Shown here one piece after another: positions 1-38,215 of a stretch of 64,000 nt of DNA (positions are counted from its first letter, which is position 1; every line of letters starts with the position of its first letter). Origin of the DNA: Blastomonas sp. GTDB taxonomy: Bacteria; Pseudomonadota; Alphaproteobacteria; Sphingomonadales; Sphingomonadaceae. Position numbers and translations under genes: made by a program. The stretch covers positions 65,456-129,455 of the forward strand of contig NZ_JAUCZC010000007.1 in assembly GCF_030373265.1 (NCBI RefSeq), read 5' to 3'. The notes below the pieces were generated by a model. The model was not told the origin of the DNA and did not search any database. It saw only the letters and a list, made by a program, of their open reading frames with translations.

Positions 1-90
1 CTTCCACCAGAATGACGCAAACCTCGCGAATCCCCTCGACCCCACGGCATGGACGCGTCAGTCTCGCGCCAGAACAAACAGGGGGCATTG

Positions 91-730
91 ATGGTCGCCA
101 TCGTCCAGACCGTGGCGTATCTGGGGCTCGAGGCGCGCAGCGTCGAGGCGCAGGTGCGGATATCGCCGGGGATGAACAAGGGCATCGCGGTGGTCGGCCT
201 TCCTGACAAGGCGGTGGGTGAAAGCCGCGAACGCGTTCGCGCCGCCATCGCCTCGCTGGGTCTGGCGCTCCCTCCCAAGCGCATCACCGTCAACCTGTCG
301 CCCGCCGATCTGCCCAAGGAAGGCTCGCATTGCGATCTGCCGATCGCGCTGGCGATGCTGGCGGCGATGGGGATCATCGATGCCGAATTGGCCAGCGAAT
401 ATGTCGCGGTGGGCGAACTCGCGCTCGACGGACGGATCGCCGCCTCGCCCGGCGTATTGCTCGCCGCGCTGCACGCCTCTGCCACCGGACGCGGGTTGAT
501 CTGCCCGGCGGCGCAGGGGGCGGAAGCGGCTTGGGCGGGCGGCATCGACGTGATCGCTGCGCCCGATCTGCTGACCTTGCTCAACCACCTCAAGGGCAAT
601 GGCCGGCTCAGCCCGCCCAAGCCCGGCATCGCCGAAGCGCCCGCACCGGGCCCCGACCTCAAACAGGTCAAGGGGCAGGAGACCGCCAAGCGCGCGCTCG
701 AGATCGCGGCTGCCGGGGGCCACAACATGG
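91..730 (+). pseudogene. comM: comM/yifB (Mg-chelatase-like AAA+ competence protein), 5' fragment split by island insertion
   Basis: ORF 49..738; the likely start is ATG 91 (MVAIVQTVAYLGLEA...VVGLPDKAVGESRERVRAAI, a typical ComM N-terminus). The frame reaches AAAGGHNM, enters foreign DNA and stops at 736-738. The Walker-A half resumes at 11797. Confidence 0.85.
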
Positions 731-731
731 T
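721..731. other. attL junction core (CACAACATGGT)
   Basis: This 11-mer recurs as CACAACAGGGT at 11788-11798 (10/11 identical). The sequence to its left is comM and the sequence to its right is island DNA. Confidence 0.7.
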
Positions 732-797
732 AAGATAATATACGGTTACACCCATGAGCCGGAGCAGTCTGCAACGGCATGCTGGCAGGAGCCTAAA

Positions 798-1133
798 ATG
801 GGTCGCAAACGCAATGTATGTTATGAAGTAGTGCTTCGTGATGGTGGTGGGGGGTATTGGCTCACGATTGAGCCGCAGCACCGGACATTCTCCGATGAAT
901 TTCTCCTGAGCAAATCCGAGCTACACAGTAGGGCGGTCGCAGTCGTAAGCTCCTTAGGCACGGTCGTCCTGCGAGATGAGACAACCGAAGACGGGTCGGG
1001 TGCTGAACGAACTGGGCGCTATTTTGCTGCCCGCGCACCTTGGGCAAACAACGATTACGCCCCTCCGATCACCGATGATGAACCGACCCTCTTCGATGCT
1101 CGTCTCATGCCTGATTGGTATTATCGACGCTAA
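798..1133 (+). CDS. hypothetical protein (111 aa), first gene inside the island left end
   Basis: Internal ATG at 798 of track ORF 330..1133, preceded by AGGAG with 6-nt spacing. Sequence is MGRKRNVCYEVVLRDGGGGYWLTIEPQ... I recognise no family. Confidence 0.45.
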   Translation: MGRKRNVCYEVVLRDGGGGYWLTIEPQHRTFSDEFLLSKSELHSRAVAVVSSLGTVVLRDETTEDGSGAERTGRYFAARAPWANNDYAPPITDDEPTLFDARLMPDWYYRR

Positions 1134-1136
1134 GCA

Positions 1137-1257
1137 GGGATGCTTCGCATCCCAATTTCAAGCCCCACACCTTTGCACGCGTGCAGCCCCAATTTCCGAC
1201 GTTGTGATCGTATTGGCCTGTATTGAGTGATCCAAAACCCCTAATTTACAGGTATTG
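1137..1257 (+). other. candidate oriT / relaxosome binding region
   Basis: Intergenic region directly upstream of the RHH-T4CP-relaxase operon. It contains hairpin GGGATGC-TTC-GCATCCC (1137-1153), a perfect 12-bp palindrome TGCACGCGTGCA (1174-1185), the 9-bp direct repeat CCCAATTTC (1151-1159 and 1188-1196), and three GTATTG motifs (1210, 1220, 1252). Confidence 0.4.
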
Positions 1258-1268
1258 ACGAAATACAC

Positions 1269-1604
1269 ATGGCCGCCACCACCGTCATTCAGACCCGCAT
1301 CGTTCCGAAGCTTGCTATGCTGCTAGACAGCCGCGCCGCCGAAGCAGGGATCACACGCGCCGAGATGGTCCGCATAATGTTAGAAGCGGCGCTTGATTCC
1401 CCGCAGCCGGTTCGCGCCACAGTGACCGATCCGCTGCTAGGCGAGATCGCTGTAGAGCTGGGTGCGCTCATAGCCCGGGTAGATGCGTGCGAAACCAGCG
1501 CACACAACGCCCATGCCACCGCTCGCCTTGCTGCGCTCATGCTCCTACCCGCCGAGCGCCAGCAAGCGTTCATTGACAAGCTCAAGCAGGCCATTCGCTC
1601 ATGA
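1269..1604 (+). CDS. ribbon-helix-helix (CopG/MobC-like) relaxosome accessory protein
   Basis: 111 aa. The N-terminus TRIVPKLAMLLDSRAAEAGITRAEMVRIMLEAAL fits a beta-strand plus two-helix RHH pattern. Its stop overlaps the T4CP start (ATGA at 1601-1604). Confidence 0.6.
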   Translation: MAATTVIQTRIVPKLAMLLDSRAAEAGITRAEMVRIMLEAALDSPQPVRATVTDPLLGEIAVELGALIARVDACETSAHNAHATARLAALMLLPAERQQAFIDKLKQAIRS

Positions 1605-3412
1605 GCCGTGCGACTGAACAGGCGGGGCGTGGCCATGCCATCGAGAAATGGCGCTTGCGTTCGACGCTCATTCTGTTGCGCACAGGCGTAGCCTTCAGCC
1701 TGCTGGGCATGGTGAGCGGTGTAACGTTGGTCGGCCTCGCATCAAACGATACAGACCGCCAGCACGCAATCTCATTCACGAAAGCTAAAGCCTCACAGCA
1801 TCTGGATGCTGCCATACAGATTGATCCCCGTCGTTCCGTTGCAGCGCCCACAGTTCTAAATAGAGACGCGCCGGAGCGTATCGCTGCGGTCCGACTCTTC
1901 TCGCGAATGGCCATAGCTGGCGGCCTCCTCGGACTTCTGCTCGGCATTGGTGGGGTTACGCTTTTGCGGGGCCACTGGATTAAGGCGGCCCAACACGCAG
2001 CTCTCGATCAAGTGCTGCGCGGCAACCGGGTCGCGACCGCCGATGAGCTCACGAGGCTTGTCATGAAGAACAAGCCGTCAGAACCTTTGCGCATCGGAGG
2101 GGTGCCAATCCCGCCGCAAGACGAGGCTCGGCATTTCTTGGACATTGGTAAATCGGGCACCGGCAAAACCAGCGTCTTGCAAGATCATCTCAGCCAGATC
2201 GTAGCCCGCGGAGAAAATGCACTAATCTTCGATCCGGATGGCAGCTACGTTGAACGCTTCTTCCAACCCGAACGCGGCGATATAATTCTGAATCCTTGGG
2301 ACGGACGCAGCCATCGCTGGAACATGCTCGCCGACATCGCCAGCTTGGACGATGCCCACCGCATCGCCGCCATCTTGCTCCCCAAGCCCTCGAAAGTTGG
2401 CGAAAGCAATTTCTGGTTCGATCAAGCCCGAGCCCTGCTGGCCCATATCCTAGATCATACGGCCCACACTGAGTCCGCAAGTTTGGATGCGCTCTCCTCT
2501 ATCCTTAACACCACCACCGCTGAAGATTTGCGCACGATCGTGACTAACACGGCGGCAGCCCGCATTTTCGAGTCGGGGGGTGAACGAGCCACCGCTAGCG
2601 TTCTGTTTATGATGACAATGGCCGCCCGCACCGTCGCAACGCTAGCCACCATCCCGGAGAACGCACCTACCTTCAGCTTCGACTGCTTTTACGCTGGCCT
2701 CGCCGAACATGAAGGCCCGAAGCCAATGATTTTCTTGGCGGTACCGCGTCGATATCGCGACGCTGGCGGACCTATAATTGCGGCGTGGATAGATGCGGCA
2801 GCGTCGGCCATCCTTCAGCGCAACCCCGGAGACGCGCCAAAGGCTTGGTTGTTTCTGGACGAGTTAGCTTCACTCCCTCCGGTCCAATCCTTGCTCACTC
2901 TGCTACCAGAAGGCCGCAAGCACCGAGCCTGCGTCGTCATCGCCTTTCAGTCTATCGCGCAGCTGAGACAGACGTATGGCAATGACGGCGCGGAAATCAT
3001 TTCCGGCCAAACCGCCACCCAGTTCATTATGGCACCGGGCGATGCGGCAACTGCTAAGTGGGCTGTCGATCTATTCGGCTCGGCTGAGGTTGAGACCCAA
3101 CGCGCCAGCGAATCCCTGGGTGACGACCCCAAAGCGCACGGGTCACTTGCCATCCACCGCGAGCGCAAAGCCATTGTTATGGACAGCGAAGTCACCAACC
3201 TCGCCACCGGCGAAGGCTTCCTGCGTCTGTCAGGCTACCCAATCGCTCAAGTGCTGATCGCGCCGCCTAAAGCCCTGGACATTATTGCGCCAGCCTTTGT
3301 TCCTGCGCGCCTAACTCCCCGCACCTGTTCAACTTCGTCCTGCAGCGCACCACCCGTGGACGCAGTTCGGATAGAGGACCGCGATGACTGGTTGTCGATG
3401 GGAGGGCTATGA
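1601..3412 (+). CDS. type IV coupling protein (TraG/TraD/VirD4 family)
   Basis: 603 aa with two N-terminal TM segments, Walker A GKSGTGKTS and Walker B-like WLFLDELASLP. It is translationally coupled to the relaxase gene. Confidence 0.8.
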   Translation: MSRATEQAGRGHAIEKWRLRSTLILLRTGVAFSLLGMVSGVTLVGLASNDTDRQHAISFTKAKASQHLDAAIQIDPRRSVAAPTVLNRDAPERIAAVRLFSRMAIAGGLLGLLLGIGGVTLLRGHWIKAAQHAALDQVLRGNRVATADELTRLVMKNKPSEPLRIGGVPIPPQDEARHFLDIGKSGTGKTSVLQDHLSQIVARGENALIFDPDGSYVERFFQPERGDIILNPWDGRSHRWNMLADIASLDDAHRIAAILLPKPSKVGESNFWFDQARALLAHILDHTAHTESASLDALSSILNTTTAEDLRTIVTNTAAARIFESGGERATASVLFMMTMAARTVATLATIPENAPTFSFDCFYAGLAEHEGPKPMIFLAVPRRYRDAGGPIIAAWIDAAASAILQRNPGDAPKAWLFLDELASLPPVQSLLTLLPEGRKHRACVVIAFQSIAQLRQTYGNDGAEIISGQTATQFIMAPGDAATAKWAVDLFGSAEVETQRASESLGDDPKAHGSLAIHRERKAIVMDSEVTNLATGEGFLRLSGYPIAQVLIAPPKALDIIAPAFVPARLTPRTCSTSSCSAPPVDAVRIEDRDDWLSMGGL

Positions 3413-6219
3413 TGGTAGCTAAGCCCATCAAACTCACCGACCCCGCTGCGGCTTATAATTATTATCAGGCCGACGATTATTGGAGCCGCGAAGCTGCAGG
3501 CCAGTGGAAGGGTCGCGCTGCGCGGGCCCTCGGTTTAGAAGGGGAAGTCGACCCCGACCAATTCATGAGCCTGCTCAAGGGGCAGTTGCCAAATGGCACC
3601 CAGATCGGCACTAGCCGCAAAGGCGTGCGCGAGCATACCCCGGGTTTCGACCTCACCATGAGTGCACCCAAGTCAGTATCGGTAATAGGGCTAGTCGCGG
3701 GTGACCGCCGAGTCATCGACGCACATGCTCGCGCGGTCGATGTTGCTCTAGGATATGCCGAACGTCATATCGGCGTTACCCGTATTCGCAATGGGGAGAC
3801 GGTCGAGCGGATCGCTACGGAGAAGCTGGCCATCGCGCAATTTTTGCACGTAACCGCCCGCGAAACCGAAAACGGCACGCCTGCGCCGCAGATCCATTCG
3901 CACAACGTCATCCTAAACATGACTCAGGACTGTGACAGCAACTGGCGCAGCCTTGATGCACGTGACCTCTATCGCCTCCAGAAGCACATTGGCGCGGTCT
4001 ACCATATGGAACTTGCAGCCGAATTGCGGCAGCTTGGCTACAGCGTAATCGTCGCGCCCGATACCACCTTTGAGATTGATGGCGTGCCCGAGCATGTGTT
4101 ACGCGCCTTCTCGCCCCGGTCCCGTCAGATCGAGGCCGCCTTGGCCGCACGAGGGCAGACCCGCGCCAATGCATCAGCAGCCGAGAAGAGCGTCATTGCG
4201 CTGAAAACCCGCGCACCCAAGCGAACTGTCAATTATGCCACGCTCGCCGCCACTTGGCGCACCCAAGCCGATGAACTAGGACTCGACGAAGACGCCCGCC
4301 GTGCCCTCGTCGATGCAGCCGAAGCCCAAGCGGTCGGCAGACCCAATCTGGGCACAATCCGACGCATGGCCGAAGCAGACAAGGCCGTTTCTTTCGCCAT
4401 GGCCAAGCTCTCCGAGCGCCAGGCAGTGTTCACTGCAGCCGATCTTGAACGTGAAGCAGGGCAAAAAGCTAGCGGCGCTGCAACTCATGGTGATGTGGTC
4501 GCCGCCATCGCTCGAGCCGAGCGAAAACAGGCCCTTATGGTTCGTGCCGCCCCTCGCATGGCAAAGGGCATTGTAGGCTATACAACCCGCGAGGCCGTCA
4601 TCACGGAACAGGCAATGCTCGCGATGGAGACGGAAGGACGCGAAACTGGCAAGCCGATAGTTGGACTGGTTAGGGCTGAGGCCGCTATCGCATCGGCTGA
4701 GCGCCGTTCAGCCCACGCTTGGACCGAGGGACAAAAGGTGGCAACTCGGCAGTTGCTCCTGTCCTCGTCCGCCGTCACTGGCCTGCAGGGCCATGCCGGA
4801 ACTGCCAAGACGACAACCGTTTTAAAGACGGTCGCCGAAGCAGCACGCACCCAAAAGAAAACGGTGCGCGCTCTTGCCCCCACCGCAACGGCTGCCGATG
4901 TATTAGGTCGCGCGATCAAGGCGGAACCTACAACGGTCGCGAGGATGCTATCCCATTCAAGTGAATTGTCCGAACCAGGTACCGAGGTCTGGATCGTGGA
5001 CGAAGCTTCTATGCTGTCAGCGCGCGATGCCCGGCGCCTAATTGCCCGCGCCCGCGATGCTAAGGCTAAACTAATTCTGGTTGGCGATGTCGAACAGCTC
5101 GGCTCGGTGGAGGCAGGGCGCGCATTTGGGCAGCTTCGAGAAGCGGGCATGGAAACGGCCGTGATGGACGAGATCGTGCGCCAATCAAATCACCACACCC
5201 GGAAGGCAGTCGAGGCCATGCTGGCAGGCGATGCCTCGGCGGCTTTCGATGCGCTCGACGCTGGCGGTGGGTCGATAGTCGAGCATGAAGAAGACGATGT
5301 GCGCCATGCGCTGATGGCGAGGGATTTTGTCAAGCTGTCGCCTGAGGAGCGCGCGGCCACTATAGTCTTGGACACAACCCGCGAGGGCAGGCAGCGACTC
5401 ACGGCATCAATAAGATTTGCCCTAGTTAGAGACGGCACACTCGGAGAGCAGGCCATGATCGCGAAGGTGCTAGAGCCTGTTGGTTTCACCCGCGCCGAAG
5501 CGCGCAACGCTGCAAGCTATCAGCCAGGGCAGATCGTGACGTTCCGTAAAGGGGCCGGTAAAGGGCAGCCGCGCCCCGGCATCGGATATAAGGTGGACGC
5601 TGTTGATGCCGACGCCGGAACCGTGCGGCTGATTGGCGAGAAGGACACGCCGATCATCTGGTCACCGGCGATGTCAGGCGGCGATAGGGCTGAAGCTTTC
5701 GTTGAAGTTGAACAGGAATTCCGTGCTGGTGACCGCATACAGTTCACCCGCAACAACTATACTGCCAATCGACTCAACGGCCACACTGCTACGGTGGTAG
5801 AACTTGATCCCATCGGCGGCTCGATGGTTGTAGAGCGGCAGCGCGATGGAAAGCTCCAGCGGCTCGACCTGCATCATTTGGCCGATCGCTATGTCCGTCA
5901 TGGTTGGGTGCAGACCATCCACGCCGCCCAAGGGGCAACCTCTGACCGGGTTATGGCGCATATGGAGTCTTTCCGGACCAACACTGTGGACACTCGAGCC
6001 GCCTACGTCGCCATTAGCCGGGCGAGGTCCTATGCAGTGCTCTACACCGATAGCAGGGCCAAACTCGCGCAAGCTCTCGGCTCGCGAGACGTTGCGCAAG
6101 TGGGAGCGATCGATGAATTGGATACTACGAAAGGCCAGTTAAAAGACGCTGCTCGAAAAAGCGCCGAAATTTCTTACACAACGAACAAGCCAACGTTTAA
6201 CGAGGCATATTCAGTTTGA
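3409..6219 (+). CDS. MOBF-type conjugative relaxase with C-terminal RecD-like helicase (TrwC/TraA family)
   Basis: 936 aa. The N-terminus is a TrwC-like relaxase domain (AAAYNYYQADDYW, histidine motif PQIHSHNVILN). The helicase part has GHAGTAKTT Walker A and VWIVDEASML Walker B. Confidence 0.85.
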   Translation: MMVAKPIKLTDPAAAYNYYQADDYWSREAAGQWKGRAARALGLEGEVDPDQFMSLLKGQLPNGTQIGTSRKGVREHTPGFDLTMSAPKSVSVIGLVAGDRRVIDAHARAVDVALGYAERHIGVTRIRNGETVERIATEKLAIAQFLHVTARETENGTPAPQIHSHNVILNMTQDCDSNWRSLDARDLYRLQKHIGAVYHMELAAELRQLGYSVIVAPDTTFEIDGVPEHVLRAFSPRSRQIEAALAARGQTRANASAAEKSVIALKTRAPKRTVNYATLAATWRTQADELGLDEDARRALVDAAEAQAVGRPNLGTIRRMAEADKAVSFAMAKLSERQAVFTAADLEREAGQKASGAATHGDVVAAIARAERKQALMVRAAPRMAKGIVGYTTREAVITEQAMLAMETEGRETGKPIVGLVRAEAAIASAERRSAHAWTEGQKVATRQLLLSSSAVTGLQGHAGTAKTTTVLKTVAEAARTQKKTVRALAPTATAADVLGRAIKAEPTTVARMLSHSSELSEPGTEVWIVDEASMLSARDARRLIARARDAKAKLILVGDVEQLGSVEAGRAFGQLREAGMETAVMDEIVRQSNHHTRKAVEAMLAGDASAAFDALDAGGGSIVEHEEDDVRHALMARDFVKLSPEERAATIVLDTTREGRQRLTASIRFALVRDGTLGEQAMIAKVLEPVGFTRAEARNAASYQPGQIVTFRKGAGKGQPRPGIGYKVDAVDADAGTVRLIGEKDTPIIWSPAMSGGDRAEAFVEVEQEFRAGDRIQFTRNNYTANRLNGHTATVVELDPIGGSMVVERQRDGKLQRLDLHHLADRYVRHGWVQTIHAAQGATSDRVMAHMESFRTNTVDTRAAYVAISRARSYAVLYTDSRAKLAQALGSRDVAQVGAIDELDTTKGQLKDAARKSAEISYTTNKPTFNEAYSV

Positions 6220-6220
6220 T

Positions 6221-6350
6221 ACGCCTGTGTAGATTAATTTGACGGCCCGCTCCTGCCGTCATTTAACCCGACCGCCGGTTGATACGGAAATCGAGATGGC
6301 GCTTGTGTGTGGGCTGCCAACAGCCATTTGGTTTGAGCGGAGCGCCAATT
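6221..6350 (-). ncRNA. candidate structured ncRNA downstream of the dual-RT operon (possible DRT3-type ncRNA)
   Basis: On the minus-strand RNA an outer stem GGCGCU/AGCGCC (6298-6303 pairs with 6341-6346) encloses hairpin GGCUG-UUGG-CAGCC (6312-6325). An unpaired CACACACA tract follows (6304-6311). Further hairpins follow, including GACGGC...GCCGUC (6241-6260). No ORF is present. Confidence 0.4.
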
Positions 6351-8429
6351 TCAATATACGTCACGACTACGCTTCGCGTCCAGTTCCTTTGTGAGATCAA
6401 ATTTGTCGCCCCAGGCCGTGAACCAATGACTGTTGACCGCCTGAAGCTCTGCCAACTGAGCGGCATCCAAACCGAAGATGGCACCCGCAGAATTTTGAGT
6501 AGCGACCGACACGTAAGGACAAACAACTAGGTCCAGAAATAGCATCAAAGCCTCAGCATCATTTGGACAATGCGTCTTGACAAAATCGAGCTTCGCAAGA
6601 GCCTGAGCTTCAATAAAGGCGCGAAGTTTTGCATACCTCACTTTATTCTTTACGTATGACAAGAGAACGGTGATTGAAAAGTGATTTAAAAATTTCTCGC
6701 GCAGATAAACTCCCGATTTCTCATCCCATTTTATAAGGAAGTGGCTAGCTACAGCCTCTTCCGGAAGCCAATATTCGCGACCAATTCCAGATAGCACTAT
6801 CAGCAGATACAAGCTCTCAATCTCTCTGTGAGAACTCATTTTATTCTTAGCCAGCATCTCGCGAATATTATCATGCACGAATTTGAAAAGCAGATGCTTG
6901 AGCTCATGAGGAAACTGACGACTGGTTAAAAAACCGACTGCTGTCGCCACCATTCGACACATTCTAATAGTATGATTCACTTTCGGACTTGCTGAATAAG
7001 CAAAGAACGAAAACTCGAGAAGAGCTATAATAGCATTTACCATTCGGCGGCGATCAATGTGATCCCCATCACTAGCCAAATAAGCCCCGATAATTATGTC
7101 AACTTTGTTTTCAATAATTGCGAACGTGTAATTCAATAGATCAGAGTATTCTACTTTCGACTCTTTTATTACTGTCTTGTAACCAACAATTAATCGATTG
7201 GCGTTTAAATTACAGCTAAATCTCTTAACAATCTCGCCCCCAGTATCACTATTATCGGTCTCTTCCACAGACGGGTCAATAACTGAATTCATCAAGGTCG
7301 AAATATGCTCTTTCGCAATTGTAATTTCAGTTATTATGGGCTTAGGATATACTTTTAACTTTGCGGGATTTATCGCTAATTTTTTCGATTTCAAAATTTC
7401 TTGAAGCTCCTCAATGACGTGAAGCTCCGTCGATTTATCATTATAGAAAACAAAAAAATCATCGACGTATCGGAAAATCTCATAATGGCTTTTGTGCTTT
7501 AAATTTGCCCGATCGAAAAGAGCGCGCTCCAGTTCAACGTCAACAGACTGAAGAATGATTTCGGCAAATATTCTAGAGAATTCCGGGCCTATTACAATTC
7601 CATTAGTCTCATTCTGATTTAGCTGCTGCATCACAGCATCAAAACGACCGCCAAACGTAGATTTTGATCCATCGAGATTAAACTTCGTCTGATTTTTTCC
7701 CATTACAGCCCAAGGCATTGAATGGGTGTAAATGCTATCAAAGCATTTACTTATATCTATCTGCATCATTGCGTCATATTTTTTTTCGCAACGATGATAT
7801 TTATAGGATTCAAAAAACTTGTGTATATTACGATATTTTTGATATACAAAATAGGAACCGATCTGCTCGTATTCCCGGCCATATTCTTCTACCCCGCCTG
7901 AGATACTTTCAAGATCTTGGTCGTGAAGCTTGTCCTTAAAGAATGCATATCGCGATACTGAAACTGGTCGACGAATAGAAAAGGAGCTTAGCGATGTATA
8001 ATATGTGATCATCGCACTGTGGCGAGCATAAAATTCGGCAATACGAACCTGATTACGCGGATGAACAACACTAAGAGTCCGCCCCTCAATTTTATGCGCA
8101 ACCCGAAAATTAAATGGTATTGTTTCCATTCTGCAGGATTTTAACGGCACACTGCGGCGAGTTATTGGCTTAACAGCCCCCCACTCTTTCTGTGTAGTTG
8201 TTTCCACGACAACATTTTTCTTTACGCCGAATATTAGCTTGATGGTTCTTTCCAGGCCAGGCCCGCGATCTATCCATCGAACCCGGCCGTCCTCGATCTC
8301 AACCTTATGATCCCGTAAAAATGCAAAAAATCCGCGATTTGTGAAAGTTGGTGGAACTTCGAACGGCAGCATATCGGTCATCACTGCACGCTGCCTACGG
8401 TGCGTTAGAGCTACACTTCGTTTAGACAT
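6351..8429 (-). CDS. reverse transcriptase, large (692 aa), Drt3b/UG8-like or AbiA-like defence RT
   Basis: RT palm motifs QIDISKCFDSIYTH, GIVIGPEFSRIFAEIIL, IFRYVDDFFVFYND (catalytic YVDD) and KLAINPAKLKVY, plus a long C-terminal alpha-helical extension. N-terminus has LPFEVPPTFTNRGFF. AT-rich. Its start overlaps the upstream RT gene stop by 8 nt. Confidence 0.8.
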   Translation of the reverse strand: MSKRSVALTHRRQRAVMTDMLPFEVPPTFTNRGFFAFLRDHKVEIEDGRVRWIDRGPGLERTIKLIFGVKKNVVVETTTQKEWGAVKPITRRSVPLKSCRMETIPFNFRVAHKIEGRTLSVVHPRNQVRIAEFYARHSAMITYYTSLSSFSIRRPVSVSRYAFFKDKLHDQDLESISGGVEEYGREYEQIGSYFVYQKYRNIHKFFESYKYHRCEKKYDAMMQIDISKCFDSIYTHSMPWAVMGKNQTKFNLDGSKSTFGGRFDAVMQQLNQNETNGIVIGPEFSRIFAEIILQSVDVELERALFDRANLKHKSHYEIFRYVDDFFVFYNDKSTELHVIEELQEILKSKKLAINPAKLKVYPKPIITEITIAKEHISTLMNSVIDPSVEETDNSDTGGEIVKRFSCNLNANRLIVGYKTVIKESKVEYSDLLNYTFAIIENKVDIIIGAYLASDGDHIDRRRMVNAIIALLEFSFFAYSASPKVNHTIRMCRMVATAVGFLTSRQFPHELKHLLFKFVHDNIREMLAKNKMSSHREIESLYLLIVLSGIGREYWLPEEAVASHFLIKWDEKSGVYLREKFLNHFSITVLLSYVKNKVRYAKLRAFIEAQALAKLDFVKTHCPNDAEALMLFLDLVVCPYVSVATQNSAGAIFGLDAAQLAELQAVNSHWFTAWGDKFDLTKELDAKRSRDVY

Positions 8430-9771
8430 GCCGCCAAGCCTTTACAATTACCTTAAGCTCATCTGCGCTAAAATTATGAAATCGTCGCTGCTCGAATCCA
8501 GATTTAAACCGATACCGGTTCAATGAATTCCTCAGTTTCGGCCGCTTTATCTTTAAGATCTGCTTTTTTAGCAGTGTATCTAGAGGATCGTATTTTTTTA
8601 GATTTGTGATAATTGGACTATTATAGTATATGCCAGTTGTCGCGCTCGACTTACTATTCTTCAATCGCGCGTTTCCTGTCAGAAATTTCAACCTAGCTAC
8701 GATCTCGCGGTAGGCCTGACGTTGTCTCGTGGGAACGTCCCGCCAATACTCGGCGAATGCGGCATCAACCCTACTCCTCAGTCTCTCAATCTTTGCATCA
8801 CTGGGCTCAATTTCTAGTGTTCTCAATGTTGCTGTATAACTGTAACCAAGATAATCAAACTTCTTTGGAGGACCCTTGTCTCCCAAATTAAAATCTTGCG
8901 TCTTTTTTACGTTGTTGGTCAAACTATGCTTATTAAGTATCTCTAGCACCAAGTCCTTGTAACTTCCGCTAGCTGCACCGACCGGAGGCCTTGCAAAAAC
9001 TGCAAAAATGTCATCCACATAGCGGCAGTAGAGGACAGCTCCAGGTAACTCTCTGATAGCTCGGTCAACGGGTCGGAGAAATAGCTCGGCCAAATAGGCG
9101 CTAATACCCACACCGCGGGGAATTCCTTTTGGGCTACCGCTGATTTTCCCGTAGGAGGTAAATATCTGACGGATGAATCGCTTGGACGATGAACTCAGCA
9201 ATTGATCGCTATCGAGTGCTCTATATAGCTTATCTCGATCAATGCTCTCGTAGAATTCAGAAACGTCTGTCCGGACAAATTCGAATGGAAATCCCGTTCC
9301 AATCGTATCACGAACGCGACACGCAAGTTCATGCCGATTTGACTGCTTAACTTTATAAATACGATAGATATTCCACTGCAGCTGCTTCACCACAAAGAAC
9401 GTTTCAGCTGTGCTATCGATGCAGTAGACGGGCTTTCCATTCGGCCCGGTCTTTTGAGAGAGCGTCAATCTAAATTCAGGCTTGGCGACCTCAGCGCTGA
9501 GCTTTTCCATCTCGACATCGACGGCATTCGACTTCGTGGCTTTCAATTCGGCAAGCTCGGCCTTTATTTTCGACTCTGCCGTCTCAAATACCGAAGCAAC
9601 CAAGGATGCTTTGCCCTTCCTCAATTTTCTGAGTTCGGCAACCTTATCTCGAACAGCACCAGTCATTGGGCAAAGATGCGGAAAGTATCTGCCGACGACA
9701 TCCAGCCCCTTGCGATTTTCCCTGTCGAATATTCGCCGGAAATTTTCGGCCGTGAACATCTGATCTAGCAA
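8422..9771 (-). CDS. reverse transcriptase, small (449 aa), Drt3a/UG3-like defence RT
   Basis: RT motifs RTDVSEFYESIDRDKL, GIPRGVGISAYLAELFL, LYCRYVDDIFAVFA (YVDD) and FDYLGYSY. Track start is TTG at 9771, with GGGGGA about 8 nt upstream. An alternative ATG lies at 9759 (MFTAENFRRIF). Confidence 0.8.
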   Translation of the reverse strand: MLDQMFTAENFRRIFDRENRKGLDVVGRYFPHLCPMTGAVRDKVAELRKLRKGKASLVASVFETAESKIKAELAELKATKSNAVDVEMEKLSAEVAKPEFRLTLSQKTGPNGKPVYCIDSTAETFFVVKQLQWNIYRIYKVKQSNRHELACRVRDTIGTGFPFEFVRTDVSEFYESIDRDKLYRALDSDQLLSSSSKRFIRQIFTSYGKISGSPKGIPRGVGISAYLAELFLRPVDRAIRELPGAVLYCRYVDDIFAVFARPPVGAASGSYKDLVLEILNKHSLTNNVKKTQDFNLGDKGPPKKFDYLGYSYTATLRTLEIEPSDAKIERLRSRVDAAFAEYWRDVPTRQRQAYREIVARLKFLTGNARLKNSKSSATTGIYYNSPIITNLKKYDPLDTLLKKQILKIKRPKLRNSLNRYRFKSGFEQRRFHNFSADELKVIVKAWRHV

Positions 9772-10043
9772 CTAGCCGTCCCCCATAATATCACGGCTTT
9801 TAACCGCCGTTCGGCCCTTAGTCTCCACGCATACGCTGCCATGCTCGAATAAGGGACGCCAGCTAAATACACATTTCCCGTCAGATTGAAGTCAGTTTCC
9901 CCGGGAGCCACCCGGAAGCTAGCTGAATGTCAAAAAGTGAGATGGCGCCCCTCACAGCCAGCCGCACTTGCAGCGATCGGCGCGAGCCCTCTGGCTCCAG
10001 GCTTTAGCCCTGGATTTCTGTAAGCACCGCTAGCCGTTTCTGA

Positions 10044-11756
10044 TCACGTGTCTTCCCGCCTTGCTGACCTGCGAGCAGCCAGCCCCTTTTGGAGGACGCC
10101 CTTTATGGTCCGTAGCTGACGCGGGCTTAGGCCTTCGCGTGACAATCGCCGTCCGCTCACGTAAAAATCTAGCGCAATACTCGTCGTTTTCGCGTCGATC
10201 ACGACCGTCCGAACACCTGATTTAAAACGAATGCCGACCCTTCGGGCTTTGTGATGGAAACTCATTTTTTCAACTAATTCGGAGATAGCCACGCGAACTA
10301 TAGACCGCGCCGGAAATCTAACATTCTCATCAGAGGAGTGGATTTCGTTTCTCAATACTTCAATTCGTTTTGCGTGCTCATCTGGCGAAACAGCGCCGCG
10401 CGCTTGAACGAGCGATGCGTTCAAATGGGCAATGAGCCCCTCTTGCGCATCGAACAATTCGATCATTTTCTTGTATTTTTCCAGCGTTTCTTCACGTCGC
10501 ATGCTAATATGCGTCTCAAGCGCGCTATCTGCGCGAGCACGTAGTCGTTCGAGTTCTAATTTTGCTATGGCGCAATCATGTGCAATATTGGCAGCTTGAC
10601 GCGGTGCGGCAAAATGAGCGTCACCAACAGCATCTGAAAGAATCGCATTGAGCACGCCTTGTTCGACTGACGAGTAATTGAACCGAACGTTATTCTTACA
10701 TTTGCCTCCGTGGTCTTGAATAATGCCGCGCTGCATCGCATCGCAGACAAGATAGTCCTCGTAAACGACACGACTATCTGCCCGCTTCTTCTGCCCTTTT
10801 GATCTTAAGGTCATCTTAGCACCGCACCCAGCACAGTATGCCAGGCCAGAAAAGAGATTAGCCAGGCGCCGACCCTGCCCCATATTTAGCCGAGCCTTAT
10901 CTTGCATACTAACCCTCGCACGGGCGTAGAGGTCGGCGCTGATAATCGCGGGGTAATAGTTTTTAATAGGGTCGCCAACTAGTGAACGTTTGCCACTACC
11001 CGACTTCTTGCCTAGTTGAAATTCACCTAGCACGGCTACGTTGTTCAATATCTTTTGAATGTAAGAAGCATGCCAAGCCTGTGATTTTCCAAACGTTGGC
11101 ACCTCCTCTTCGTTCAAACGGCGTGCAATATGATGCTTCCCAAACCCTTGCGCTGTCTCTTCGAAGATACGGACAACGACCTGCGCACGGTCTGCAATAA
11201 TTTTGAAACCCTTTCGTCCCTCACCCACGAGCAACCAAGCCGGCGCTCTGGACGTGAGGATGACATTCTCGCCAGCAAGAATCCGCGCACGCTTGTCGTC
11301 CCATGACGCTGTAATGCGCTCACTCTTTTTCAACGACTCGCGGTGAGCAAGATCGGCCTTGACCACCAGCTCGATTATGGTCGCCATGTCGAGATTATCT
11401 TGCCGATATTGTCGGTCCCCCTCGACGGTTGCTACGATCACCCCGAGGCTTGTGATTTGCTCCAACCAAGTGAAGACCTTTTTCGGCTCTTCTCGGGATA
11501 GGCGGTCCAGGTTCTCGACCAGCAACACGACCCCGTCTTTGAATTCCCCATCCTCTATTCGGGCCTGAATATGCGACATTTTGCCTGCCCGCCGGTGTCC
11601 TCCAGTGAATGCCGAAACCCCCTCCTCTATGATCTCCTCGACAATTTTCCACCCACGCACGCTTGCATGCTCGCGGCACCTTTCGAGCTGGCGGACCTTG
11701 GATGAACCGGCTGACTGTTCTGCACTGGACCAGCGCACATATAGTATGGTATTCAT
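10044..11756 (-). CDS. large serine recombinase (island integrase)
   Basis: Track ORF 10044..11924 runs across attR into comM antisense. The real start is ATG at 11756 (MNTILYVRWSSAEQSAGSS, resolvase catalytic-Ser motif). A recombinase domain, Cys-rich zinc-ribbon region (CAGCGAKM...) and coiled-coil tail follow. Confidence 0.85.
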   Translation of the reverse strand: MNTILYVRWSSAEQSAGSSKVRQLERCREHASVRGWKIVEEIIEEGVSAFTGGHRRAGKMSHIQARIEDGEFKDGVVLLVENLDRLSREEPKKVFTWLEQITSLGVIVATVEGDRQYRQDNLDMATIIELVVKADLAHRESLKKSERITASWDDKRARILAGENVILTSRAPAWLLVGEGRKGFKIIADRAQVVVRIFEETAQGFGKHHIARRLNEEEVPTFGKSQAWHASYIQKILNNVAVLGEFQLGKKSGSGKRSLVGDPIKNYYPAIISADLYARARVSMQDKARLNMGQGRRLANLFSGLAYCAGCGAKMTLRSKGQKKRADSRVVYEDYLVCDAMQRGIIQDHGGKCKNNVRFNYSSVEQGVLNAILSDAVGDAHFAAPRQAANIAHDCAIAKLELERLRARADSALETHISMRREETLEKYKKMIELFDAQEGLIAHLNASLVQARGAVSPDEHAKRIEVLRNEIHSSDENVRFPARSIVRVAISELVEKMSFHHKARRVGIRFKSGVRTVVIDAKTTSIALDFYVSGRRLSREGLSPRQLRTIKGVLQKGLAARRSARREDT

Positions 11757-11787
11757 TTGTAACGATTTATCATAAGGAGTAGCTTGA

Positions 11788-11798
11788 CACAACAGGGT
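11788..11798. other. attR junction core (CACAACAGGGT)
   Basis: Partner of 721-731. The sequence to its right is comM, with GTG ATG GTC GGG CCG CCG encoding VMVGPPG. Confidence 0.7.
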
Positions 11799-12669
11799 GA
11801 TGGTCGGGCCGCCGGGCGCGGGCAAGTCGCTGATGGCCTCGTGCCTTCCTGGCATTCTGCCACCGCTGACCCCGGAAGAGGCACTCGAAGTCTCGATGGT
11901 CGCATCGGTCGCAGGCACGCTCACCGACGGCCGGATCAGCCGCGCGCGCCCGTTCCGCGCGCCCCATCACAGCGCCTCGATGGCGGCACTGGTCGGCGGT
12001 GGGCTCAAGGTGCGCCCGGGTGAGGTCAGCATGGCGCATCTGGGCGTGCTGTTCCTCGACGAACTGCCCGAGTTTCAACGCACCGTGCTCGATTCGCTGC
12101 GCCAGCCGCTCCAGACCGGCGAGGTCAGCGTCGCGCGCGCCAATGCGCACGTCACCTTTCCGGCGCGGGTGCAGATGATCGCAGCGATGAACCCGTGCCG
12201 TTGCGGGCACCTGGGTGATCCGGCGCTCGGCTGCTCGCGCGCGCCGCGCTGCGCTGCCGACTATCAGGCCAAGGTGTCGGGCCCGCTGCTCGACCGCATC
12301 GACCTGCATGTCGAGGTCGAGGCGGTGACCGCTGCCGACCTGACCCTGCCCCCGCCCGCCGAGGGCTCGGCCGAAGTCGCCGCCCGCGTCGCCGCCGCCC
12401 GCGCGCTGCAGACCGCGCGCTACGCCGATATCAAGGCGCGCACCAATGCCGAGATCGACGGCGAGGCGCTGGAGCGGTTCGCGACCCCGGATGAGCCAGC
12501 GCGGCAGCTATTGGCCCGCGCCGCCGAAGCGATGCGGCTCTCGGCGCGGGGGTATACGCGGGTGTTGAGAGTAGCGCGCACAATCGCGGATTTAAGCGGC
12601 GCGGAAACTGTGGGCCGGGTGCAGGTGGCGGAGGCTTTGAGTTATCGGCGAAGGGCGCCGGTGGGGTGA
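11797..12669 (+). pseudogene. comM/yifB 3' fragment (AAA+ ATPase and C-terminal domains)
   Basis: Starts directly with (V)MVGPPGAGKSLMA Walker A. Further motifs are GVLFLDELPEF Walker B and the C-terminal ARGYTRVLRVARTIADL, all typical of ComM/YifB. It has no N-terminal domain of its own. Confidence 0.85.
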
Positions 12670-12697
12670 GGCAGCGGAGCCCCCCGACCCCGCTGCC
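12670..12697. terminator. hairpin between convergent comM and bdhA
   Basis: GGCAGCGG-(12 nt)-CCGCTGCC, an 8-bp stem located between two stop codons. Confidence 0.45.
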
Positions 12698-12708
12698 GTC
12701 GTCGCATG

Positions 12709-13491
12709 TTACTGCGCAGTCCAGCCGCCATCGACGGGAATCGCGGTGCCGGTGATTTGCGCTGCCGCTTCGCTCGAGAGGAACGCGGCGAGTTCGCCCA
12801 TCTGTTCGGGGGTGGCGAACTGCTTGCTCGGCTGCTTTTCGATCAGCAGCTTTTCGGTCGCGGCTTCCACGCTGATGCCCTGGTCGGCCGCCATCGCCTC
12901 GATCTGCTTCTGCACCAGCGGGGTGTGAACCCAGCCGGGGCAGATGGTGTTGCTGGTGATCCCGGTGCCGGCGTTCTCAAGCGCGACGACCTTGCTGAGG
13001 CCGACGACGCCATGCTTGGCCGCGACATAGGCCGCCTTGTGCTTGCTGGCGATCAGGCCGTGCACCGATCCGATGTTGATGATGCGGCCGAAGCCCTTGG
13101 CCTTCATGTGCGGGAGGGCCGCCTGGATGGCGAAGAAGATGCCCGACAGGTTGATCGCAATCACCGCATTCCATTTGTCCGCGGGAAAGTCCTCGACCGC
13201 GTCGGTGTGCTGGATGCCGGCGTTGTTGACGAGGATGTCGACCGAGCCCAGCTTTTCGACGCACAATTCGACCATCGCCTTGACATCATCGGGCTTGGAC
13301 ATGTCGGCGTTGCTGTAGACGACCTCGACGCCATATTTGGCGGCGAGGCCGGCGCGCTCCTTTTCTATTTCATCGGCATCGCCGAAGCCGGTGATGACCA
13401 GATTGGCACCCTTGGACGCCAGAACATTGGCGATGCCCAGACCAATTCCACTGGTCGAGCCGGTGACGACGGCATTCAGTCCCTTAAGCAT
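12709..13491 (-). CDS. bdhA: D-3-hydroxybutyrate dehydrogenase (SDR family)
   Basis: 260 aa with GSTSGIGLGIA cofactor motif, SVHGLIASKHKAAYVAAKHGVVGLSKV catalytic region, ICPGWVHTPLV, and a C-terminal DGGWTAQ as in characterised BDHs. Confidence 0.85.
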   Translation of the reverse strand: MLKGLNAVVTGSTSGIGLGIANVLASKGANLVITGFGDADEIEKERAGLAAKYGVEVVYSNADMSKPDDVKAMVELCVEKLGSVDILVNNAGIQHTDAVEDFPADKWNAVIAINLSGIFFAIQAALPHMKAKGFGRIINIGSVHGLIASKHKAAYVAAKHGVVGLSKVVALENAGTGITSNTICPGWVHTPLVQKQIEAMAADQGISVEAATEKLLIEKQPSKQFATPEQMGELAAFLSSEAAAQITGTAIPVDGGWTAQ

Positions 13492-13642
13492 GTGAGATCC
13501 CCTCGATACGGTTGCGCGGTGCGGCCCGGAAGCATTGTTCGCAAGTGCAGCGAATCGCTCTTGCCGACTCGTCTAACGTGAGTTACCCCTACGTTCCAAC
13601 GGAAATATACGGGTTTCGCATCAGTTTCTGGGGGGAAATGCG

Positions 13643-14731
13643 ATGGCGACGGCTGACCCGTTGACTGCGGCAGATGCTGCGGGTGCGAAATCCAAAAGTG
13701 ACAAATATGTTGCGGCCGCGAACAGCAAGCCGGTCAACCTGGCGCTACAGGGCGGCGGTGCGCACGGGGCGTTTGCCTGGGGGGTGCTCGACCGATTGCT
13801 CGAGGATGGGCGGCTCAAGTTCGATGCGGTGAGCGCGACCAGCGCCGGCGCGATGAACGCCACTGTGCTGGGCTATGGCCTGACCATCGGCGGCGCCGAC
13901 GGGGCGCGCGAAGAGCTCGAGAAATTCTGGAAGAAGATCAGCGACGAAGGCGCCAAGGGCCCGCTGCAGCCATCGTGGATCGACAAGGCGATGGGCAACC
14001 ACAGCCTCGATTTCAGCCCGGCGTTCCTGATGATGGACATCCTCTCGCGGGTGATGTCGCCGTACGAGCTCAACCCGTTCAACCTCAATCCGCTGCGCGA
14101 TGTCCTGCAAGGCGCGGTGGATTTCAACGTGCTGCGCGAGGGCTGCCCGATCAAACTGTTCCTCTCGGCCACCAACGTGCGCACCGGCAAGGTCCGCATG
14201 TTCGAGAACCACGAGATCGGCCCCGATCAGGTGCTCGCTTCGGGCTGCCTGCCGTTCATGTTCCAGACCATCGAGATCGATGGCGAGGCCTATTGGGACG
14301 GCGGCTATATGGGCAACCCGGCGATCTTTCCGCTGATCTACGGCAGCCAGACCAACGATGTCGTGATCGTCCATATCAATCCGCTCAACCGCGAGGAAAT
14401 CCCCAAGACCGCCAAGGATATCCTCAACCGGATCAACGAGATCAGCTTCAATTCCAGCCTGATGCGCGAGATGCGCGCAATCGCGTTCGTCACGCATCTG
14501 ATCGATGACGGCCAGCTCAACGACGACAAGCACCGCCGGATGCTGATCCACTCGATCCAGGACGAGGTCTTCATGGAAAGCCTTGGCGTCACCAGCAAAT
14601 TGAACCCCGACTGGGGCTTCATGAAGAAGCTGCGCGATGTCGGCCGCGCCTGCGCCACCAAATGGCTCGACGAGCATTTCGACGATGTCGGGGTCAACTC
14701 GTCGACGGACATCAAATCCTTTTTCCTGTGA
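13643..14731 (+). CDS. patatin-like phospholipase/esterase family protein
   Basis: 362 aa with oxyanion motif LALQGGGAHGAFAWGVL, nucleophile elbow SATSAGAMNA (GxSxG variant) and DGGYMGNPA catalytic Asp motif. Confidence 0.8.
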   Translation: MATADPLTAADAAGAKSKSDKYVAAANSKPVNLALQGGGAHGAFAWGVLDRLLEDGRLKFDAVSATSAGAMNATVLGYGLTIGGADGAREELEKFWKKISDEGAKGPLQPSWIDKAMGNHSLDFSPAFLMMDILSRVMSPYELNPFNLNPLRDVLQGAVDFNVLREGCPIKLFLSATNVRTGKVRMFENHEIGPDQVLASGCLPFMFQTIEIDGEAYWDGGYMGNPAIFPLIYGSQTNDVVIVHINPLNREEIPKTAKDILNRINEISFNSSLMREMRAIAFVTHLIDDGQLNDDKHRRMLIHSIQDEVFMESLGVTSKLNPDWGFMKKLRDVGRACATKWLDEHFDDVGVNSSTDIKSFFL

Positions 14732-17333: not shown

Positions 17334-19190
17334 TTATAGCCCTAAAGCCGTCGCGGTCCAGAAGGTAATCCCAGCCGCGACCCAGGCCAGCCCAAACAGA
17401 TAGGTCAGCATGAAAATCGGCCATTTCCAGCCGTTGGTCTCGCGCTTGGTCACCGCGATCGTCGAGATGCACTGCGGCGCGAACACGAACCAGGCGAGGA
17501 ACGCCAGCGCCGTGGGCAGCGACCAGCGCCCCGCAAGGCGTTCGCCCAGCGCCAGCGCCTCGGTTTCCTCGTCGGGCGCATCGATCGCATAGGTCGTCGC
17601 CAGCGCCGAGACCGCAACCTCGCGCGCCGCCATCGCCGGGATCAGCGCCAGTGCGATGTCGCGGCTGAACCCGATCGGCGCCACGACCGGTTCGAGCACG
17701 CCTGCGATTCGTCCGGCAGCCGAATATTCGGACTGGCTCATGCTGCTGCCTTCGGGCACCTGCGGATAGGTGAGCAGCAGCCACAGGCCGATGGTCACCG
17801 CAAAGATGATCGTGCCCGCGCGGCGCAGGAACAGCCAGGCGCGCTGCCACAGCCCCATCGCCAGATCGGCAATGCGCGGCATCTGGTATTTGGGCATTTC
17901 CATCAGGAATCCGCTCGCGCCGCCCTTGGCGACGGTCGAGCGCAGCACCAAAGCGACCACCATCGCGCCGATGATGCCGAAGACATAGAGCCCGAACAGC
18001 ACGAGCCCCTGCATGCCGATCCCCGGGCCCACCGCGGTGGATGGGATGAAGGCGGCGATGATCACGGTATAGACCGGCAGCCGCGCCGAGCAGGTCATCA
18101 GCGGTGCAATCAGGATCGTGGTCAGCCGGTCCTTTTCGTCAGAGATGCTGCGCGTCGCCATGATTCCGGGAATCGCGCAGGCGAAGCTCGACAGCAGCGG
18201 GATGAACGAACGCCCGGACAGGCCGACGCCCGCCATCATCCGGTCCATGATGAACGCCGCACGCGCCATGTAGCCGGTCGCCTCCATCAGCAGGATGAAG
18301 AAGAAAAGGATGATGATCTGCGGCAGGAAAACGACGACCGAGCCGACGCCGGCGATAACACCGTCAACGATCATCGATCGAAAAAAGCCCTCGGGGATCA
18401 CCGCGCTGGCGAACTCGCTCAGCGCCGCAGCGCCCGCCTCCAGCCCATCGGCAAAGGGCGAGGCCCAGCTGAACACCGCCTGGAAGATGATGAACAGCAG
18501 GGCAAACAGGATGATCGGCCCGGCAAACGGATGCAGCAGCACACCATCGGCGCGGTCGGTCCAGCGGCGGCTGTCGGTCTGCGAGACAATGGCAGCGTGC
18601 GCGATGGTTTCCGCGCGTCTGCGCCGCGCGCGCATGTCGGGCTCGCCCAAGGGTGCGTGCGGTGCCTGTTTGGCGAGGATCACCGTATCCAGCGCAGCCG
18701 CAAGCTCGGTGAGGCCCTTGCGCCGCACCGCGACGGTGGGGATCACCGGGACGCCAAGATCCGCCGCCAGCCGCGCCGGATCGAGCGTCAGGCCATCGCG
18801 TTCGGCAAGGTCGACCATGTTGAGCGCGACCACGGTGGGCAGGCCCAGCGCGAGCAGTTCGAGCGCGAACACCAGATGCTGGTCGAGATTGGCCGAATCG
18901 AGCACGATGATCAGCGCCTCGGGCTGGCGTTCGCCCGCCTGGCAGCCCATCACCACGTCGCGGGTGACCGCCTCGTCGGGGCTGGTCGGGTCGAGACTGT
19001 AGCTGCCCGGCAGGTCGATCAGTTCGCCCGGCCGGCCATCGGCAAAGCTGAACCGACCCGATTTGCGCTCGACCGTAACGCCGGGATAATTCGCGATCTT
19101 CTGGCGTGCGCCGGTGAGCGCGTTGAACAGCGCGCTCTTGCCAGCGTTGGGGTTGCCGACCAGTGCGATCAGCGGCTGGTGAAGGGTCAT
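17334..19190 (-). CDS. feoB: ferrous iron transporter FeoB
   Basis: 618 aa with an N-terminal GTPase ([19 protein letters not shown]) followed by a polytopic membrane domain. Confidence 0.9.
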
Positions 19191-37317: not shown

Positions 37318-37391
37318 GGTGTGCGATCGACGCTAGACGCTTTGCAGGCTCAGCAGAAGGGGGCACGCGCCCTTCAACGCGCACCTTGGGC

Positions 37392-38215
37392 TTAAAAACC
37401 GGTGGACAGCGTCGCTGCCGCGCCCGAAGCGGGCTGCGCGTTGCCATCCACCCGCTGACGCCAGTCGAGCGCGACCGTCATCTGGCTGTCCCCGAGTGGC
37501 ATCGCCAGCGCTGCGCGCGGCCCCATATCGACCCAGTGGACCCAACGCAGCGCACCATCGGAATCCGATTCCTGCTGGCCACCGGCCCAGAGCCCGCCGC
37601 CCACCGATACAGTATGCCGATCGCGCGCCGCAACCTGCCGCGTGGACACCATCTGCCCATCGAAAACCCCCGGCGGGTGTTCAGGCCGACAACACCTGCC
37701 TGCGCAAAGGCTTTGACCTTAATCTGGCTACGGCCCAGCCTGGTGGCACCACCGGACACCAGCATCGCTGCGAACCGGGCCTTCTGGCCTTCGAAGAGGC
37801 CGAAGCGCCGCTCCACAGCCAGCTCGAGCGGAATGTTGCCCCATGGCCGCGCAGTGATGCCCAGCGCCAAGGTGCGGTCATCGGCACGTGCAAGTGCAGT
37901 GGCAGCGCAGGCATAGAGCGCAGACGCCTGCCCGCCATCGCCCAGGGCATGGCGCACGATCAACCCTGCCTGACTGCCGCCATACTGAGCGCCCAGCGCC
38001 AGCGCTGCGCTTCCGCCATTGGGGCGCACCAGCGACCAGGCATAGATCCACCAGCTTTTTTGTCGGGCCTGCAAAGCCAAGGCCCGGCCCCTATCGCCGC
38101 CGCCATGATCGCAAGGACATTGCCGACATGAGCGCGAGGGATCGACCACAGCGCCTGACGACAGCCAATTTGTGCTGCTACACGAATACCGCACCACCAT
38201 CCGCCACGCCAGCAT
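37392..38215 (-). pseudogene. possible frameshifted outer-membrane beta-barrel gene
   Basis: ORF 37478..38215 has beta-strand-like alternating sequence until ...GLNTRRGFSMG and then turns Arg/Trp-rich. ORF 37392..37652 in another frame continues plausibly and ends ...ATLSTGF, a typical OMP terminal Phe. The frames meet at homopolymers A4C5 (37663-37671). Confidence 0.35.

Follow-up and report, generated by a model that had tools for sequence, protein, structure and literature searches.

Two neighbouring reverse transcriptase (RT) genes lie on an island within 64,000 nucleotides of DNA from Blastomonas sp. (assembly GCF_030373265.1, contig NZ_JAUCZC010000007.1, positions 65,456 to 129,455; this whole stretch is called the window below, and positions are counted within it). 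The question is what these two genes do together, and whether their neighbourhood explains how they came to be there. The original prediction was a DRT type 3 defence module, that is, UG3 and UG8 RTs with a small non-coding RNA (ncRNA), and our analysis bore this identity out on every feature that a sequence can test. The locus is very probably an intact canonical DRT type 3 antiphage system, made up of drt3a, drt3b and a downstream ncRNA and carried as cargo of the island, and it would work by the mechanism known from E. coli. We favour this reading because both proteins belong to curated Drt3 families, an identical protein is already named in NCBI, the gene order agrees, an ncRNA with an invariant ACACAC follows drt3b, and the functional residues of the E. 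coli proteins could be mapped onto those of the window.

Family assignment of the two reverse transcriptases

The two minus-strand open reading frames (ORFs) were found as originally described, including their overlap of 8 nt. The first, drt3a (8422-9771, minus strand), encodes a Class 2 (UG3) RT of 449 aa with a TTG start codon and YVDD at residues 251-254. The second, drt3b (6351-8429, minus strand), encodes a Class 1 (UG8) RT of 692 aa with an alpha-repeat C-terminal domain, in which E24, R117, D225, F230, R286, Y321-VDD and the terminal Y692 are the predicted key residues. Both ORFs are full length and free of frameshifts, and the peptide motifs quoted for them earlier, including RYVDDIFAVF and RYVDDFFVFYND, were all present in the translations with both YVDD boxes intact.

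Comparison with the curated NCBIfam models gave 385.8 bits for Drt3a against NF041747 (cut-off 200, residues 1-446 of 449) and 701.9 bits for Drt3b against NF041748 (cut-off 350, residues 14-692). The PADLOC models, a check that had been proposed with the original prediction, put Drt3a at the top for the 449-aa protein (E = 4.9e-115), with RT_UG17 as the best match outside that family at 3.4e-28, and Drt3b at the top for the 692-aa protein (E = 5.8e-195), where Drt6 came next among the other families at 7.5e-48. Drt3b also matched PDB 26cz_A (E = 1.3e-69) and 9z6y_H (E = 1.2e-59) over residues 100-643, which means that the alignment to solved structures takes in the alpha-repeat region, and Drt3a matched the Drt3a chain 9z6y_A at E = 9.8e-26. 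The NCBI entry "antiviral reverse transcriptase Drt3b [Blastomonas sp.]" is identical to the window Drt3b from a later start codon onwards, and more than 3,700 homologues were found at E ≤ 1e-20. The earlier suggestion that the locus might be a variant outside the described clades found no support, since the equivalog models cover both proteins over essentially their whole length with scores about twice the cut-off, NCBI already lists an identical protein under the name Drt3b, and the clade has thousands of members. The locus is an already annotated, ordinary DRT3 member with nothing novel in its identity, and as a standard system named by the NCBI pipeline, with a chemistry established in 2026, it has little weight as a discovery.

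Weak matches to other RT models were also obtained, as generic RT-domain similarity would produce, and they could be taken to mean that the pair comes from other RT families (group II intron, retron, AbiK/AbiA, diversity-generating retroelement or CRISPR-associated) and that the two genes stand side by side by chance. The group II intron RT/maturase model TIGR04416 gave 59.8 and 54.7 bits against a cut-off of 300, and the Rfam scan of 1-14000 contained no group II intron. The retron model NF038233 gave 37.2 and 20.4 bits against 235, with no Rfam retron RNA in the scanned region and no effector ORF within the cassette. AbiA reached 23 bits against a cut-off of 250 (NCBIfam), AbiK 97 bits against 648 for Drt3b (PADLOC), the NCBIfam models of Drt2, Drt4 and Drt5 stayed far under their cut-offs, and a CRISPR-associated RT failed on the curated scores. 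A diversity-generating retroelement was rejected by a repeat search of 500-12200, which returned only repeats of 20-24 nt at about 80% identity, as chance predicts, and no template-repeat/variable-repeat pair. The Rfam scan and the repeat search thus agreed with the earlier remark that an intron, retron or retroelement context is lacking, and the Drt3 models were far ahead of the group II intron, retron, AbiK and AbiA models. Refuted in this way by curated scores, Rfam and repeat searches, a chance pairing of other RTs is left with practically no probability.

Gene junction and start codons

The gene drt3a comes first and shares 8422-8429 with drt3b on the same strand. We compared the window with 43 related loci (L001-L043) from Alpha-, Beta- and Gammaproteobacteria, Acidobacteria and Verrucomicrobia, and the overlapping a-then-b order was kept in essentially all of them. 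The window copy falls with these loci in a proteobacterial Drt3 clade with a compact ncRNA (examples are Shinella fusca, L030, and an Acetobacteraceae metagenome-assembled genome, L001; a plasmid locus, L045, also belongs here), whose members share the gene overlap, the limits of the cassette and a GTA-TAY-stop box at the end of drt3b. Identity to the window was 54-80% for Drt3b in most loci (47% in the most distant, L038) and 42-79% for Drt3a, and the ncRNA had a mean column identity of 85%. As for the host, Blastomonas is a genus of the Sphingomonadales, which are alphaproteobacteria of high G+C, in agreement with the high-GC alphaproteobacterium that had been proposed.

At the position homologous to the TTG at 9771, the start codon was ATG in 25 of 35 related loci, TTG in 7 and GTG in 2, and the codons after it encoded a conserved (L/F)DQMFTAEN in these 35 loci. 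Because both the start codons and this peptide are conserved at the homologous position, the TTG at 9771 is, judged from the alignment, the true start of drt3a. For drt3b, the NCBI record that matches identically begins 16 codons downstream (676 aa), and window positions 8382-8429 form the 5' end of drt3b. N-terminal residues that are invariant in the clade, together with the alignment to the N-terminus of EcoDRT3b, the E. coli protein, support the longer start, the ATG at 8429 that overlaps the drt3a stop codon, over the shorter NCBI start.

A compact ncRNA downstream of drt3b

The small non-coding region of the predicted layout proved to be real and was placed at 6346-6241 on the minus strand. 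This ncRNA has a core of about 106 nt (6241-6346) that would consist of a closing helix P1, a hairpin P2, the template, and hairpins P3 and P4. The ACACAC template for Drt3a is located at 6305-6310 (minus strand), where it is predicted to be unpaired, directly 3' of P2 and 2 nt 5' of the 3' strand of the closing helix. The element was found directly after the drt3b stop codon in all 42 related loci examined, starting about 6 nt past the stop with ACACAC at an offset of 42-45, and the window has the same arrangement. In an alignment of 39 ncRNA sequences, ACACAC was invariant (39/39), and many of the neighbouring positions were invariant as well. We then left the window out and derived a covariance model from the other 38 sequences; it matched the window at 6347-6239 (minus strand) over its full length with 108.1 bits (E = 1.5e-21), and this was the sole match in 64 kb. 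A permissive Rfam search of 1-14000 gave no family for a DRT3 ncRNA and only a sub-threshold BjrC68 match inside comM. Annotation pipelines omit this RNA, and its exact coordinates are given here.

The helix model with P1-P4 and a loop pairing was well supported by the same alignment: 98.4% of the cells pair and 16 pairs show compensatory changes, values that were reached by 0 of 500 shuffles, and slid controls paired at 37-53%. The P3 hairpin is variable, and the loop of P4 has complementarity to CUCCGCU(C/U) in the 5' strand. RNAalifold favoured a nested long-range helix (5-8:112-115) over the local helices P1 and P4, but compensatory changes were seen in P1 and P4 and none in the nested extension of RNAalifold. 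Since there is no linker between them, the P4 stem and the pairing of its loop with the 5' strand may be alternatives rather than simultaneous.

Outside the close relatives, the covariance model also found the ncRNA directly downstream of drt3b on the E. coli IncY plasmid CP083496 (L045) with 32.8 bits, and an ACACAC downstream of drt3b was also seen in distant E. coli, Enterobacter, Vibrio and Bacteroides loci. Mestre et al. 2022 (PMC9226505) describe an exposed CACACA-like motif that is conserved across 17 UG8-ncRNA subgroups at a distance from the RT that "varies greatly", and the window resembles these UG3+UG8 ncRNA groups (1-17) in having such an exposed motif past the UG8 gene, where the spacing between motif and RT end differs among the groups. 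Because varying scaffolds and template distances are reported in that paper, the compact scaffold is within the described diversity. On the IncY plasmid, drt3b (2943-4986) is annotated as two 'hypothetical protein' coding sequences (2943-3689 and 3805-4986); a frameshift or an interruption of the gene is probable, but the compact ncRNA is retained downstream.

Functional residues and expected mechanism

How a two-RT system works had been called poorly understood in the original prediction, which is out of date, since mechanism and structures were solved in 2026 (PMC13174585; Deng et al. 2026, as summarised in PMC13314766). In EcoDRT3, the system of E. coli ECOR12 (Gao et al. 2020; PMC13174585; PDB 26cz), DRT3a copies the conserved 5'-ACACAC-3' loop of an ncRNA encoded downstream of drt3b into poly(dTdG), and a DRT3b hexamer primes on Y666 and makes poly(dCdA) without a nucleic-acid template, with E22 and R241 acting as gates and R71 stacking (Wang, Yoneyama et al. 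2026, PMC13174585). The two product strands anneal to double-stranded DNA (dsDNA), which RecBCD holds at a low level, and lambda Gam or loss of RecBCD leads to growth arrest (PMC13174585). The YVDD motifs of both RTs are required for defence. For the E. coli DRT3 of Deng et al. 2026, an independent study, PMC13314766 summarises a kilobase-scale poly(GT/AC) dsDNA and a 6:6:6 complex of Drt3a, Drt3b and ncRNA; the PDB holds 26cz for DRT3b and 9z6y and 9z6z for Drt3a with Drt3b. A tblastn search of plasmids and phages with an EcoDRT3b fragment gave no exact EcoDRT3 locus, only relatives at up to about 50% identity.

We aligned the window proteins to the EcoDRT3 sequences of Table S3 in PMC13174585, using the first 400 aa for Drt3b, and conservation of Drt3b residues was read from a clade alignment of 13 sequences. 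Identical residues were found for E22 (E24 in the window), R71 (R117), D182 and I183 (D225 and I226), F187 (F230), R241 (R286) and Y276-D279 (Y321-D324), and all of these were invariant in the 13 sequences save I226, which was at least 90% conserved. Both Drt3a Y251-VDD and Drt3b Y321-VDD aligned to the EcoDRT3 YVDD motifs. The window Drt3b ends in ...KRSRDVY, and its terminal Y692 was invariant in 13/13 clade proteins and 43/43 loci; more distant homologues end in VYA, VYD, GYDS or VY. From its position and conservation, Y692 is predicted to be the counterpart of the priming residue Y666 of EcoDRT3b. The likeness to EcoDRT3 covers the set of drt3a, drt3b and downstream ncRNA, YVDD in both RTs, the same E/R/R gating residues, the Mg-binding D-I pair, F187, a tyrosine near the C-terminus, and an unpaired ACACAC in a junction that directly precedes the 3' strand of the closing helix, where the EcoDRT3 placement is that of a minimum free energy fold.

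If the window system follows the E. coli mechanism, Drt3a would bind the ncRNA and repeatedly copy the exposed ACACAC (6310-6305) into poly(dTdG). Drt3b, probably as a hexamer, would prime DNA synthesis on its own C-terminal Y692 and polymerise strictly alternating poly(dCdA) without a nucleic-acid template; in this reaction E24 would serve as the gate for dATP and R286 as the switch for dCTP, and R117 would stack. As a member of the same family as the E. coli DRT3 of Deng et al. 2026, from which it differs by distant sequence and a compact ncRNA, it would be expected to form a 6:6:6 assembly. The two products would anneal into a poly(GT/AC) duplex, which in an uninfected cell would be held low by a host exonuclease acting on dsDNA ends, RecBCD in E. 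coli and presumably AddAB here. Alphaproteobacteria generally use AddAB rather than RecBCD. Phage inhibitors of the nuclease would then let the duplex accumulate, and growth arrest (abortive infection) would result.

There are also differences from EcoDRT3. Drt3a has 449 aa here and 398 in E. coli, Drt3b 692 and 667; in the window Drt3b about 44 aa are inserted after the E-gate, so E22 corresponds to E24 yet R71 to R117; and the first approximately 110 residues of Drt3a do not align to the first 57 of EcoDRT3a. The ncRNA has 106 nt with the template about 38 nt from its 5' end, whereas that of EcoDRT3 has 161 nt with the template at about nt 111. The tyrosine is the last residue here but the penultimate one in EcoDRT3b (Y666 of 667), and the host is an alphaproteobacterium, a class that usually lacks RecBCD. 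The compact ncRNA, the Drt3b insertion, the unaligned Drt3a N-terminus and the host class could point to a DRT3-family locus with a different product or wiring, in which assembly, stoichiometry or the trigger (for example AddAB, another nuclease or another phage trigger) is altered. But the template hexamer and all gating and priming residues are identical to those of E. coli, so the same products are expected, and the 17 ncRNA subgroups that PMC9226505 reports for this system already differ in scaffold and template distance. We consider a different product or wiring improbable.

Some points do weigh against a canonical system acting as in E. coli. Identity to the studied E. coli proteins is just 38% for the N-terminal 400 aa of Drt3b and 32% for Drt3a, the latter over 318 aligned residues with YVDD aligned. 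The equivalence of Y692 and Y666 is taken from position and conservation, and in a PDB search with the C-terminal 80 aa of the window Drt3b the tyrosine-bearing tail stayed unaligned. The P4 stem and the pairing of its loop with the 5' strand are perhaps sterically incompatible as a simultaneous pseudoknot; the fold favoured by RNAalifold is a nested long-range helix. The ncRNA covariance model had no match in the Enterobacter, Vibrio and Bacteroides drt3 loci, the ncRNA gave no blastn match in 5,426 E. coli genomes, and its scaffold could not be aligned to the 161-nt EcoDRT3 RNA. The guard-nuclease step is extrapolated from E. coli, with AddAB as the presumed enzyme here.

We regard it as possible, but rather doubtful, that the compact ncRNA of this widespread clade, with its about 106 nt, is a distinct minimal DRT3 scaffold, perhaps with its own promoter, and that the guard nuclease and the phage triggers differ in hosts with AddAB. 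The locus offers an alphaproteobacterial representative for the question of whether AddAB replaces RecBCD as the guarded nuclease.

Putative transcription signals

A promoter scan of the end of drt3b gave a putative -10 box TATATT at 6353-6358 (minus strand), which is formed by the Val-Tyr-stop codons of the gene, and a -35-like TGGACG at 6377-6382 (minus strand); the arrangement TGGACG-18-TATATT spans 6382-6353. The terminal Val codon of drt3b was GTA in 41 of 43 loci, and GTA made up 13% of the other Val codons in the same genes. The synonymous sites adjoining this codon, and the stop codon, varied freely in the 43 loci. The -10-like box stops 6 nt short of the conserved 5' end of the ncRNA. 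The GTA bias, the free neighbouring sites and the position of the box together suggest a separate promoter for the ncRNA within the last codons of drt3b. The ncRNA would then probably be transcribed from this promoter, its -10 box being supplied by the final Val and Tyr codons of drt3b together with the stop, a small new detail of the system.

The scan of 9772-10043, upstream of drt3a, found no recognisable sigma-70 promoter. In this region, between drt3a and the stop codon of the recombinase gene of the island, a terminator-like hairpin GTGAGGGGCGCCATCTCAC followed by TTTTT lies at 9937-9955 (minus strand); its presence suggests that transcription of drt3 does not come simply from read-through out of the recombinase gene.

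The lack of a recognisable promoter, the TTG start of drt3a and one mismatch of the window ncRNA in the 8-bp pairing of its 5' strand with the P4 loop (column 17 = A) would also fit an inactive remnant, that is, a cassette that hitch-hikes with the island but has lost expression or function. However, every catalytic and functional residue is intact in two full-length ORFs, the ncRNA scores 108 bits against the family model, and 9 of 35 relatives likewise begin drt3a with TTG or GTG. An inactive remnant seems highly unlikely to us, less likely still than a differently wired system, and an intact DRT3 locus remains the preferred reading.

Cassette limits and base composition

DNA similarity to the relatives begins at 9773-9770 and ends at 6241-6231, which corresponds to the drt3a start codon and the 3' end of the ncRNA. 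Because the limits of homology fit these two points, the mobile unit is, on the alignments, a three-part cassette of 3.53 kb without a conserved upstream region. The other loci of the clade have other flanking mobile elements, and the element with MobF relaxase and serine recombinase in comM was seen only at the window copy; the backbone of the island was sought around other DRT3 copies and was not found. The locus is a clean example of the cassette as a self-contained unit that is passed among unrelated mobile elements and across phyla.

The module at 6241-9771 has 44.0% G+C, with 500-nt windows of 36-48% between 6501 and 9500, compared with 59.6% in the relaxase gene and 64.4% in the chromosome at 12-30 kb. 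The original prediction was right about the low value relative to the surroundings and about right on the backbone and the chromosome, but its estimate of 35-40% for the module was slightly too low. It had also taken the low G+C as a sign of a nested, recent acquisition, for which it is weak evidence: the G+C of the cassette was under that of both flanks in 22 of 25 related loci and under at least one flank in 25/25, in many different hosts. Since the cassette is AT-richer than its flanks in nearly all hosts, low G+C is a trait of the cassette family and not of the insertion in the window.

The island inserted in comM

The idea that the DRT3 module is cargo of a mobilizable island in comM agreed with our searches, in which the relaxase, the coupling protein, the recombinase and the split comM were all found. 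The 5' part of comM (49-738) contains ChlI and Mg_chelatase profile positions 1-26 and then a stop, and the 3' part (11797-12669) contains Mg_chelatase positions 26-206 and Mg_chelatase_C, which means that comM is split in its Walker A region. The left junction repeat CACAACATGGT (721-731, plus strand) lies at the end of the 5' part and the right junction repeat CACAACAGGGT (11788-11798, plus strand) at the start of the 3' part; they agree at 10 of 11 positions, CACAACA(T/G)GGT. The element between the comM halves has 11.07 kb.

A large serine recombinase gene (10044-11756, minus strand) adjoins the right junction. It encodes 570 aa from a conserved MNTILYVRWS start with the Pfam domains Resolvase, Recombinase and Zn_ribbon_recom, and the protein is presumed to be the island integrase. 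A relaxase-helicase of the MobF family (TrwC type; 3409-6219, plus strand), convergent with the DRT3 module, gave 261.5 bits against NF041492 (cut-off 100) and has the Pfam domains TrwC and AAA_30. A type IV coupling protein of the TrwB/TraD type (1601-3412, plus strand) matched Pfam TrwB_AAD_bind at 4.1e-92 and NCBIfam TraD_Ftype with 249.7 bits, which is under the equivalog cut-off. Profile searches of the island genes found no mating-pore genes and no further defence match, and 732-11787 holds no further large ORFs. The serine recombinase, the MobF relaxase and the coupling protein, with no mating-pore genes and with comM split between junction repeats, make a gene content in keeping with an integrative mobilizable element, in which DRT3 is the only cargo that could be recognised.

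Small ORFs of the island and other genes in the window

Two small island ORFs on the plus strand, 807-1133 (108 aa) and 1269-1604 (111 aa), had no significant Pfam, NCBIfam or PADLOC match; the one sub-threshold match was to a VapB antitoxin, with 17 bits against a cut-off of 60. The ORF at 1269-1604 lies directly upstream of the coupling protein gene and may encode a relaxosome accessory protein or an excision factor.

Elsewhere in the window, a HerA-like DUF87 ATPase gene adjoins a gene for an Alph_Pro_TM membrane protein (33826-35532 and 35639-37447, both minus strand), and FtsK (23945-26320) and FeoB (17334-19190) are also encoded; nothing ties these four to the DRT3 island. A giant ORF at 42729-56861 (minus strand) encodes 4,710 aa with an N-terminal two-partner-secretion domain, 18 FG-GAP_2 repeats and 13 MBG_2 domains, and by this domain content the protein looks like a TpsA-type two-partner-secretion exoprotein.

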